This document shows positions 28,046-28,873 of a stretch of DNA of 64,000 nt, piece after piece. The notes beneath the pieces were generated by a model, which was given only the letters and a program-made list of their open reading frames with translations, was not told the DNA's origin and searched no databases. Each line of letters begins with the position of its first letter. Position 1 is the stretch's first letter. A program made the translations under genes and the position numbers. The DNA is from a phage: the sequence record PZ583743.1. One strand, given 5' to 3'.

Positions 28046-28121
28046 TGGTCGAGGCAGTAGGGATCGAACCTACGACCTAGGACTTAGAAGGTCCTTGCTC
28101 TTCCTTCTGAGCTATGCCTCG
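28046..28121 (-). tRNA. tRNA-Arg (anticodon UCU), CCA encoded
   Basis: Folds by eye: acceptor CGAGGCA/TGCCTCG, loop CTTCTAA, T-arm GTAGG-TTCGATC-CCTAC. Confidence 0.85.
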
Positions 28122-28125
28122 GATT

Positions 28126-28200
28126 TGGCGGACGTGATAGGATTCGAACCTATAACCAATCGCTTAACAGGCGATCGCTCTGCCATTGAGCTACACATCC
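28126..28200 (-). tRNA. tRNA-Asn (anticodon GUU), CCA encoded
   Basis: Acceptor GGATGTG/CACGTCC, loop CTGTTAA, T-arm ATAGG-TTCGAAT-CCTAT. Confidence 0.8.
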
Positions 28201-28204
28201 AAAT

Positions 28205-28291
28205 TGGTGGGGAGTGGTGGAGTCGAACCACCCGAGTCGCAATGACAATGGATTTACAGTCCACACCGCTACCTCTACGGGATAACTCCCC
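28205..28291 (-). tRNA. tRNA-Tyr (anticodon GUA), class II long variable arm, CCA encoded
   Basis: 87 nt; loop CTGTAAA identical to E. coli tRNA-Tyr; T-arm GGTGG-TTCGACT-CCACC. Confidence 0.8.
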
Positions 28292-28300
28292 AAATTAATT

Positions 28301-28375
28301 TGGTGGCCCTGGGTGGAATTGAACCACCATCTGGCGATTATGAGTCGCTTGCTTGAACCTTCCAGCTACAGGGCC
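28301..28375 (-). tRNA. tRNA with CAU anticodon (Ile2-lysidine type or Met), CCA encoded
   Basis: Acceptor GGCCCTG/CAGGGCC, loop CTCATAA; sits at the T4 tRNA-Ile position. Confidence 0.8.
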
Positions 28376-28376
28376 T

Positions 28377-28452
28377 TGGTGCTGATTGACGGAATCGAAC
28401 CGCCGACCTTCTCATTACAAGTGAGTTGCTCTACCTACTGAGCTAAATCAGC
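28377..28452 (-). tRNA. tRNA-Thr (anticodon UGU), CCA encoded
   Basis: Acceptor GCTGATT/AATCAGC, loop CTTGTAA. Confidence 0.85.
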
Positions 28453-28457
28453 AAAAC

Positions 28458-28547
28458 TGGCGGAGGCGATAGGATTTGAACCTATGAGTCGCCGGAGCGA
28501 CTGCCGGTTTTCAAGACCGGTGCATTAAACCACTCTGCCACGCCTCC
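28458..28547 (-). tRNA. tRNA-Ser (anticodon UGA), long variable arm, CCA encoded
   Basis: 90 nt; loop CTTGAAA; T-arm ATAGG-TTCAAAT-CCTAT. Confidence 0.85.
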
Positions 28548-28549
28548 AG

Positions 28550-28623
28550 TCTCCATACAAGGATTTGAACCTTGGACCTCCTGATCCCAAATCAGGCGCT
28601 CTACCAAACTGAGCTACACGGAG
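28550..28623 (-). tRNA. tRNA-Pro (anticodon UGG), CCA not encoded
   Basis: Acceptor CTCCGTG/TATGGAG, loop TTTGGGA; 3' end abuts tRNA-Ser (dimeric precursor arrangement). Confidence 0.8.
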
Positions 28624-28633
28624 TAAATTAAAT

Positions 28634-28707
28634 TGGAGCGGATAATGAGAATCGAACTCACATCATCAGATTGGAAGTCTGAGGTAATGCCATTATACGA
28701 TATCCGC
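28634..28707 (-). tRNA. tRNA-Gly (anticodon UCC), CCA encoded
   Basis: Acceptor GCGGATA/TATCCGC, loop CTTCCAA. Confidence 0.85.
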
Positions 28708-28712
28708 AAATT

Positions 28713-28799
28713 TGGTGCGAGAAGTGGGACTCGAACCCACAAGGAAATCATTCCGCAGCATTTTAAGTGCTGTGCCTTTACCAATTTGACCATTCTCGC
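28713..28799 (-). tRNA. tRNA-Leu (anticodon UAA), long variable arm, CCA encoded
   Basis: 87 nt; acceptor GCGAGAA/TTCTCGC, loop CTTAAAA. Confidence 0.85.
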
Positions 28800-28800
28800 G

Positions 28801-28873
28801 CTGGGAATAAAGGACTCGAACCTTTGCATCCTGGAATCAAAATCCAGTGCCTTACCAACTTGGCTAATTCCCA
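28801..28873 (-). tRNA. tRNA-Gln (anticodon UUG), CCA not encoded
   Basis: Acceptor TGGGAAT/ATTCCCA, loop TTTTGAT; 3' end one nt from tRNA-Leu (dimeric precursor arrangement). Confidence 0.8.

Follow-up and report, generated by a model that had tools for sequence, protein, structure and literature searches.

A segB-free, T2-type tRNA array in a Tequatrovirus genome and its proposed roles in codon supply and counter-defense

The phage sequence record PZ583743.1, of which a stretch of 64,000 nucleotides (nt) was analyzed here (the window), carries ten transfer RNA (tRNA) genes in a single minus-strand array. Judged by gene content, order, and sequence, this array belongs to the Tequatrovirus tRNA cluster and represents its segB-free, T2-type allele, which has already been published. 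Our overall reading, to which we assign a probability of roughly 0.8, is that the ten genes are co-transcribed, that they supply tRNAs for codons over-used by the phage, that the tRNA-Tyr gene has a role in counter-defense, and that the allele is a recipient in SegB homing. An initial annotation, made from the letters alone, had presented the array as a remodeled T4 locus. The genes were called correctly, without a discovery being made: the locus has long been studied, and the array is its standard segB-free allele. T4 is atypical of its genus at this locus, and a comparison with T4 only makes a common allele look remodeled.

Anatomy of the array

ARAGORN, run on the whole window, predicts exactly ten tRNA genes, all on the minus strand at 28046–28873, and draws a cloverleaf for each. 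Their transcribed order is Gln(UUG), Leu(UAA), Gly(UCC), Pro(UGG), Ser(UGA), Thr(UGU), a gene with a CAU anticodon, Tyr(GUA), Asn(GUU), and Arg(UCU). Rfam RF00005 likewise calls ten of ten above its gathering score, nine of them at 59–74 bits and Tyr at 30.3 bits (threshold 29). The window contains nine copies of the T-arm motif GGTTCRANTCC versus 0.09 expected by chance, so the array is no chance pattern. The genes, in transcribed order, are as follows.

28800..28873, minus strand: tRNA-Gln(UUG), no encoded CCA; abuts Leu (0 nt) in the Gln–Leu dimer arrangement; 67.4 bits
28713..28799, minus strand: tRNA-Leu(UAA), class II, CCA encoded; identical to the T4 copy; 59.3 bits
28634..28707, minus strand: tRNA-Gly(UCC), CCA encoded; 63.3 bits
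28549..28623, minus strand: tRNA-Pro(UGG), no encoded CCA; 1 nt from Ser in the Pro–Ser dimer arrangement; identical to the T4 copy; 66.8 bits
28458..28547, minus strand: tRNA-Ser(UGA), class II, CCA encoded and followed by G (CCAG as in T2L, PMC2330249); 62.6 bits
28377..28452, minus strand: tRNA-Thr(UGU), CCA encoded; 1 nt from the CAU tRNA in the Thr–Ile dimer arrangement; 72.9 bits
28301..28375, minus strand: CAU-anticodon tRNA, T2-type gene, judged not to be an ortholog of T4 tRNA-Ile; 59.9 bits
28205..28291, minus strand: tRNA-Tyr(GUA), class II, long variable arm, CCA encoded; 30.3 bits
28126..28200, minus strand: tRNA-Asn(GUU), CCA encoded; 75/75 identical to the T2 copy; 74.1 bits
28046..28121, minus strand: tRNA-Arg(UCU), T2-type gene, CCA encoded; 63.2% identical to T4 tRNA-Arg; 68.1 bits

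The spacers measure 0 nt (Gln–Leu), 1 nt (Pro–Ser), 1 nt (Thr–CAU), and 4–10 nt elsewhere; Asn and Arg are separated by 4 nt with no open reading frame (ORF) in between. CCA is encoded in 8 of the 10 genes, the only two without it being Gln, which ends ...CCCAGC, and Pro, which ends ...GGAGAC. The initial annotation had folded the same ten contiguous minus-strand genes by hand, and ARAGORN and Rfam return the same order, coordinates, and anticodons, with Tyr(GUA) and Asn(GUU) among the ARAGORN calls. Its description of Gln–Leu and Pro–Ser as pairs 0–1 nt apart, the upstream member lacking CCA, is also borne out, and the third close pair, Thr–CAU, was overlooked. The array fits the spacing of the T4 dimeric precursors (Gln–Leu, Pro–Ser, and Thr–Ile). 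By analogy with T4, the transcript would be processed to monomers via these three dimeric intermediates, and Gln and Pro would receive their CCA from the host CCA-adding enzyme.

A common allele of the T-even locus

The window is Tequatrovirus (T-even) DNA. Gene-by-gene extraction, pairwise alignment, and BLAST were used for the comparison with T4, T2, and T6. The flanks of the tRNA cluster align to all three phages at 91–97%, and the array lies between a trna.2 homolog and homologs of rnaD and rnaC. The window shows these features of the T2 type: the position, the order CAU–Tyr–Asn–Arg, the lack of segB or any seg-like gene, and, as in T2/T2L, both the CCAG end of tRNA-Ser and the preferred SegB site in tRNA-Asn. 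T2 itself (AP018813; T2L EMBL AJ880101) has identical CAU and Asn genes, an Arg gene with one mismatch, a Tyr gene matching at 85/87 positions, and no segB. Sequencing of T2L, RB1, and RB3 has shown tRNA regions without segB, and in T2L two ORFs accompany genes for Met(CAU), Tyr, Asn, and Arg (Brok-Volchanskaya et al. 2008, PMC2330249). The defining arrangement of the T4 type, segB between a T4-type Ile gene and Arg, does not occur in the window.

Relative to T4, BLAST delimits a block of difference at approximately 27680–28355. In the window, the block takes in the 3′ portion of the CAU gene, Tyr, Asn, Arg, and an ORF of 116 amino acids (aa); its T4 counterpart comprises the 3′ portion of Ile together with segB and Arg. 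By pairwise alignment, the CAU gene is 62.7% identical to T4 Ile, and the Arg(UCU) gene is 63.2% identical to T4 Arg. At the sequence level, both window genes are non-orthologous to their T4 counterparts, that is, whole-gene replacements, not additions. The initial annotation was right that the T4 set lacks Tyr and Asn, which is true of the T4 reference annotation, and that Arg is contiguous with the other genes with no segB-like gene between. Its phrase “Tyr and Asn added,” however, understates a larger difference that includes the replaced CAU and Arg genes, the CCA of Ser, and the 116-aa ORF.

The 1.6 kilobases (kb) around the array are 99.3% identical to Escherichia phage vB_EcoM_HZ_ZJUN4 and 96–99% identical to many other Tequatrovirus genomes; 271 records cover at least 80% of this 1.6-kb locus. 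Matches to the T2-type locus come from phages whose hosts are Escherichia, Shigella, Yersinia, and Citrobacter. Phages 132 (MZ417521) and BW-1 (OR125554) are annotated with the same ten genes, order and spacing included, the KIT06 genome paper lists the same ten tRNAs in the same order (PMC11274021), and ten tRNAs are also reported in several other Tequatrovirus papers. In the GenBank phage collection, with segments counted at 80% coverage or more, the Tyr–Asn segment is found in 436 phage records versus 126 for the T4-type Ile–segB–Arg segment. Thus, T4 is the minority form at the T-even tRNA locus, and the supposed remodeled T4 locus is instead a common, published allele. Exact-pattern scans of IMG/VR gave no match to the Asn-to-Arg junction and two to the Tyr-to-Asn junction; these scans are uninformative on prevalence because T-even coliphages are scarce there.

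Some relatives reach eleven tRNAs through a His(GUG) gene located between Asn and Arg, in some cases accompanied by a seg-like endonuclease. In PinkRuby (729–993 of the stretch compared) and vB_EcoM_11B_SA_NWU (724–1663), His follows a spacer of approximately 117 base pairs (bp) after Asn, in which we found no hidden or degenerate tRNA and no Rfam match. One of the two, 11B, encodes a seg-like endonuclease of 206 aa; its overall identity to T4 SegB is 51%, but over the last ~38 residues the two proteins are almost identical, which gives the 11B protein a mosaic appearance.

Two genes of the array carry variants that recur among these relatives. The anticodon arm of tRNA-Gln (28800–28873) reads CUGGA-UUUUGAU-UCCAG versus UAGCA-CUUUGAC-UGCUA in T4, T2, and T6, with identity to those three copies everywhere outside the arm. 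The anticodon loop matches that of E. coli glnU, and PinkRuby and 11B_SA_NWU have the same arm variant. In tRNA-Thr (28377–28452), positions 27 and 43 form an A–A mismatch where T4 has a C–G pair, a variant also present in PinkRuby.

SegB homing and the probable origin of the T4 form

The recognition site of SegB is 27 bp long, with GGTTCRANTCC at its start and often CCAR at its end, and the preferred site lies in tRNA-Asn (PMC2330249). Two such sites matter here.

28124..28150, minus strand: preferred SegB site, 27 bp (GGTTCGAATCCTATCACGTCCGCCAAA), spanning the T arm and 3′ end of tRNA-Asn
28456–28482, minus strand: secondary SegB site, in tRNA-Ser; its 27-mer was compared with the Asn site

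The two window 27-mers differ at exactly five positions, where the Asn site has G6, A16, G18, A26, and A27, as published for the preferred site relative to the weaker Ser site (PMC2330249), and this five-position signature establishes that the preferred site is present. A tblastn search of the 64-kb window with T4 SegB and with the seg-like protein of 11B gave no significant homolog. With the preferred site in Asn and no SegB homolog in the window, the array is therefore a recipient allele of the homing system. In T4 × T2L crosses, segB and its flanks replace approximately 1250 bp of T2L coding for Met(CAU), Tyr, Asn, and Arg, and T2L is excluded by T4 in co-infection in a segB-dependent manner (PMC2330249). 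T4-type phages would convert a window-type allele in the same way during co-infection, via the SegB site in Asn, and such conversion of a recipient allele would leave T4 without Tyr and Asn.

An opposite history can be proposed, in which the eight-gene set of T4 is ancestral, while the window phage acquired Tyr and Asn and shed segB in a remodeling specific to its lineage that adapts it to its host. T4 does lack both genes, and the locus evidently gains and loses genes: T2 has an ORF where Thr would be, T6 is missing three genes (Pro, Ser, and Asn), and further relatives have His or a seg-like endonuclease in addition. The near-identity of Tyr and CAU to genes of a Vequintavirus, an unrelated phage, would also fit acquisition. 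We nonetheless consider this history unlikely. The Tyr–Asn form is the commoner one and is distributed over phages of four host genera, the CAU and Arg genes are replacements of whole genes rather than additions, and experimental replacement of the Met(CAU)/Tyr/Asn/Arg region by the T4 version through SegB homing (PMC2330249) provides a known route to the T4 form. Given a minority form and a demonstrated homing route, it is more likely that T4 lost Tyr and Asn through segB homing than that the window phage added them.

Identity of the CAU tRNA

The CAU gene (28301–28375) was named Met in the 2008 paper (PMC2330249), and most genome annotations name it Met. Several comparisons point elsewhere. 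Among 5,424 E. coli genomes, the genes that match it best over the full length carry the annotation tRNA-Ile, its positions 28–42 (the anticodon arm) are identical to E. coli ileX, and the whole gene is 76% identical to ileX versus 66% to metT. A Vequintavirus copy, identical at 74/75 positions, is annotated Ile (ATA). The acceptor stem, GGCCCUG/CAGGGCC, provides the pairs C4–G69 and C5–G68 along with discriminator A73; these two pairs are reportedly determinants for TilS, the lysidine synthetase. An elongator Met or an initiator identity was rejected on the comparison of anticodon arm and acceptor stem. The gene is most likely tRNA-Ile2, which would read AUA via a lysidine modification predicted from these features. 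AUA, for its part, is over-used 5.8-fold in the window ORFs relative to the E. coli sample.

Codon demand and supply

Codon use in 81 mechanically called window ORFs (18,497 codons) was compared with that in 42 annotated E. coli K-12 genes (14,790 codons). Eight of the array tRNAs read A-ending codons, and the phage over-uses each of these: AGA 9.5-fold, AUA 5.8-fold, UCA 3.8-fold, GGA 3.7-fold, ACA 3.4-fold, UUA 3.0-fold, CCA 1.6-fold, and CAA 1.6-fold. The array tRNAs would thus top up the host pool for codons over-used by an AT-rich phage.

Tyr and Asn also correspond to high demand. AAU is over-used 3.25-fold and UAU 2.4-fold, and the most enriched amino acids are Tyr (1.71-fold), Lys (1.61-fold), and Asn (1.58-fold). 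In the plus-strand ORFs, assumed to be mostly structural late genes, Tyr accounts for 4.40% and Asn for 6.32% of residues, against 2.60% and 3.76% in E. coli, and Lys falls to 5.71%. The Tyr and Asn tRNAs add no decoding capacity because host tyrU and asnT carry the same anticodons; they would instead serve two of the most over-demanded amino acids.

Possible roles of tRNA-Tyr and tRNA-Asn against host nucleases

Phage tRNAs are now recognized as counters to tRNA-cutting defenses, namely Septu, retron-Eco7, and PARIS, and the window tRNA-Tyr is one base from that of T6. Septu (PtuAB) blocks T-even phages by cleavage of tRNA-Tyr within its variable loop (Chihara et al. 2026, PMC13096335). Over-expression of T6 tRNA-Tyr rescues T6 from Septu, an effect that depends on dose, and deletion of the T6 tRNA region raises sensitivity; T4, which has no Tyr gene, is Septu-sensitive, and T2 is resistant (PMC13096335). 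T6 escapes Septu by SegB-driven tandem amplification of Tyr–segB (PMC13096335). Septu cuts T6 tRNA-Tyr as well as that of the host (PMC13096335). Similarly, tRNA-Tyr of T5-like phages rescues from retron-Eco7 in a largely dosage-dependent manner (Azam et al. 2024, PMC11555353), and E. coli tRNA-Tyr rescues too if strongly expressed (PMC11555353).

The window Tyr gene matches that of T6 at 86/87 positions, and its variable arm is identical to those of T6 and T5. Because the gene is nearly identical to one that rescues, and because rescue is mostly a matter of dosage, we infer on good grounds that window Tyr contributes to counter-defense against PtuAB nucleases. By extension from the T6 gene, it would replenish tRNA-Tyr cut by PtuAB-type nucleases (Septu and retron-Eco7). 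The initial annotation had suggested escape from anticodon nucleases; the T6 findings uphold the idea that Tyr counters a host nuclease, and the target needs correction, since Septu cuts the variable loop, not the anticodon.

Several points weigh against the combined reading of codon supply and Tyr counter-defense. On the codon side, demand is an incomplete explanation: Lys is as over-used as Asn yet has no phage tRNA, and His is under-used (0.61-fold) yet some close relatives have a His gene. The codon-usage adaptation proposed in the initial annotation is supported in that Tyr and Asn are among the most over-used amino acids; it accounts for neither the missing Lys gene nor the His gene of relatives. 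The E. coli sample is also small, at 42 genes, and the window ORFs were called mechanically. On the counter-defense side, the window has neither of the means that raise Tyr dosage elsewhere, an adjacent segB or a strong dedicated promoter as in T5-like phages. Tyr is eighth in a shared transcription unit with no promoter-like site next to it, and with no segB, the amplification route is closed to this phage. A single Tyr copy without segB may therefore give only partial protection from Septu. Furthermore, the resistance of T2 was not attributed to its tRNA-Tyr, and T6 tRNA-Tyr is described as relatively unstable (PMC13096335). The window Tyr gene, at 30.3 bits, barely exceeds the Rfam threshold.

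This score, together with one D-stem mismatch in the ARAGORN drawing and the instability of the T6 molecule, could indicate that Tyr (or another array gene) is a decaying pseudogene, passively carried. Class II tRNAs such as Tyr have short D stems in general. Moreover, Tyr is 97–99% conserved across T2, T6, and other Tequatroviruses and is kept at 85/87 positions in a Vequintavirus. Differences between copies fall mainly at stem positions that stay paired (G–C versus G–U), the window stems being fully Watson–Crick, and the T6 copy is seen on northern blots and rescues infection (PMC13096335). A pseudogene as the explanation of the low score was rejected on this conservation and the published T6 data, and we regard decay as highly improbable.

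For Asn, the relevant system is PARIS. Its nuclease AriB cuts host tRNA-Lys(UUU) along with tRNA-Thr(UGU) and, with lower efficiency, tRNA-Asn(GUU), adjacent to a UAAU motif; the site in host tRNA-Asn is U36-A-A-U-C|C41, and tRNA-Lys is no longer cleaved when U39 is changed (PMC12409363). Positions 36–41 of the window Asn read UAAGCG versus UAAUCC in the host, and T5 Asn, with UAAGUU, has the same G39. The corresponding positions of the window Thr read UAAUGA versus UAAUCA in host thrU. The window Asn and Thr tRNAs are thus substituted at the recognition or cut site of AriB and, by analogy with the tRNA-Lys mutagenesis (PMC12409363), would resist it. PARIS escape needs a resistant tRNA-Lys(UUU) (PMC12409363), and ARAGORN finds no tRNA-Lys in the array or elsewhere in the window.

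Do Tyr and Asn, and His in the relatives, persist mainly as counter-defense, Tyr against PtuAB and Asn against AriB or a similar nuclease? Rescue by tRNA-Tyr has been shown for T6 (PMC13096335) and, against retron-Eco7, for T5-like phages (PMC11555353), AriB does cut host tRNA-Asn(GUU) secondarily (PMC12409363), and the G39 of window Asn recurs in T5. Unlike the eight core tRNAs, Tyr, Asn, and His read no rare A-ending codons, and His is under-used. Against this, codon supply alone could explain Tyr and Asn because both are among the most over-demanded amino acids. The array lacks the tRNA-Lys(UUU) needed for PARIS escape (PMC12409363). Septu also cuts T6 tRNA-Tyr, whose variable arm the window shares, and rescue is dose-dependent, a strongly expressed E. 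coli tRNA-Tyr achieving it as well (PMC11555353). We hold a mainly defensive role for these genes as possible, and tentatively so; the reading we prefer joins codon supply with a counter-defense role for Tyr.

tRNA genes shared between phage lineages

The CAU and Tyr genes are identical at 74/75 and 85/87 positions, respectively, to those of the rV5-like Vequintavirus MaxTheCat (MZ501094), a phage of a different subfamily. MaxTheCat Thr and Arg genes are just ~66–75% identical to those of the window; its Thr–Ile pair also has a 1-nt spacer. That CAU and Tyr are nearly identical while Thr and Arg are not suggests that single tRNA genes have recently been exchanged between coliphage lineages. 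We note that tRNA-Tyr of T5 (11341–11428 of the T5 stretch compared) shares 20 nt, UGUCAUUGCGACUCGGGUGG, with the window and T6 Tyr genes. These nucleotides form the variable arm and the start of the T stem, and the window and T5 genes are 79% identical overall.

We speculate that the tRNAs with G34 (Tyr, Asn, and the His of relatives) constitute a mobile counter-defense module apart from the eight tRNAs for A-ending codons; the 98–99% identity of the CAU and Tyr genes to Vequintavirus genes and the Tyr variable arm shared with T5 are hints in this direction. As part of this proposal, which we consider doubtful, homing endonucleases that cut T arms could drive exchange between unrelated coliphage lineages, and G39 of Asn may be an adaptation against an AriB-like nuclease. 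If so, the segB-free and segB-bearing alleles would represent a balanced polymorphism, spare tRNAs being traded against the ability to amplify.

The proposed transcription unit and its neighbors

The ten genes would be co-transcribed on the minus strand from a middle-promoter-like site, through the 116-aa ORF and rnaD/rnaC, to a terminator. The features outside the array are as follows.

28943..28967, minus strand: putative T4-type middle promoter, TGCTTTA (28967–28961), a 12-nt spacer, and TATTAT (28948–28943), ~70 nt upstream of Gln
27679..28029, minus strand: 116-aa ORF next to the end of tRNA-Arg; a GAGG ribosome-binding site of its own precedes the ATG by 8 nt; phrog_3355 (unknown function, E 3e-54)
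27423..27681, minus strand: homologs of rnaD (species 2, ~27681–27568) and rnaC (species 1, ~27561–27423), 90.7% identical to T4
27349..27372, minus strand: intrinsic-terminator-like hairpin (10 bp, 7 of them G–C) with a trailing T run; conserved across T4, T2, and T6

In alignment, the MotA-box-like TGCTTTA, 12-nt spacer, and −10-like TATTAT are unchanged in T4, T2, and T6. From the T4 middle-promoter consensus, we propose that the site is a middle promoter. A sigma-70 promoter scan around the array found 8 sites versus 7.4 expected, which is not above chance. At the other end, the hairpin at 27349–27372 is likely the end of the tRNA–rnaD–rnaC transcription unit.

The 116-aa ORF is 94% identical to the 116-aa ORF of T2 and is absent from T4 and T6. 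It has no Pfam match, and PHROGs give only families of unknown function. The ORF sits inside the stable-RNA transcription unit, between tRNA-Arg and rnaD, and its stop codon extends into the beginning of the rnaD homolog; where the ORF occurs, the Arg gene is of the T2 type. A relationship to the ORFs that flank Vequintavirus tRNAs or to a 133-aa ORF of T2 was considered, and the comparison showed none.

The boundaries of the rnaD and rnaC homologs were carried over from the T4 annotation by alignment with T4, T2, and T6 and are approximate. These RNAs have no Rfam family, and a permissive Rfam search of 27250–28060 returned nothing credible for either. Near its 3′ end, the rnaC homolog carries GGTTCGAATCC at 27435–27445, in a T-arm-like hairpin. 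The SegB core in tRNA-Asn is identical to these 11 nt, so the stable RNA has a 3′ part resembling a tRNA, along with a potential SegB half-site.

Directly downstream of the rnaC terminator, a 655-bp segment (26687–27341) is absent from T4, T2, and T6. It holds a 187-aa ORF (26695–27258, minus strand; phrog_2280, unknown function) and is flanked by 75%-identical copies of a terminator-like hairpin at 26659–26686 and 27342–27369. The segment looks like an inserted gene cassette.

Comparison with known tRNA loci

T4 has its tRNA cluster at the same position, with flanks 95–96% identical. Leu and Pro are identical to the window genes, Gly, Ser, and Thr nearly so, and the dimer spacing is shared. 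The two loci differ in other respects: in T4, segB separates Ile from Arg, and the reference annotation lists neither Tyr nor Asn, the window being the opposite on both counts. T4 Ser and Ile are without encoded CCA, whereas the window Ser and CAU genes encode it. Finally, T4 Arg abuts rnaD, whereas in the window the 116-aa ORF intervenes.

T2 is arranged as Gln, Leu, Gly, Pro, Ser, the 133-aa ORF, CAU, Tyr, Asn, Arg, and the 116-aa ORF. It has nine tRNAs, with the 133-aa ORF at the position of Thr in the window, where the total is ten. T2 Gln has the T4-type anticodon arm, and only the window has the 655-bp ORF cassette.

T6, in the order Gln, Leu, Gly, Thr, CAU, Tyr, segB, Arg, is without Pro, Ser, and Asn. 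Its Tyr gene, near-identical to that of the window, is the sole gene of its type with a tested counter-defense function. In T6, segB directly follows Tyr; in the window, Asn follows Tyr, and there is no segB and no amplification route in cis.

T5 has 20-odd tRNA genes (25 annotated in the stretch examined), including Lys(UUU), compared with ten and no Lys in the window. G39 is common to the Asn genes of T5 and the window and interrupts the UAAU motif that the host has beside the AriB cut site.

The closest counterparts are the ten-tRNA Tequatroviruses 132, BW-1, KIT06, and vB_EcoM_HZ_ZJUN4, which are 97–99% identical to the window over the 1.6-kb locus. The window differs from these phages in just point differences and in variable upstream and downstream ORFs, and it forms no separate type.

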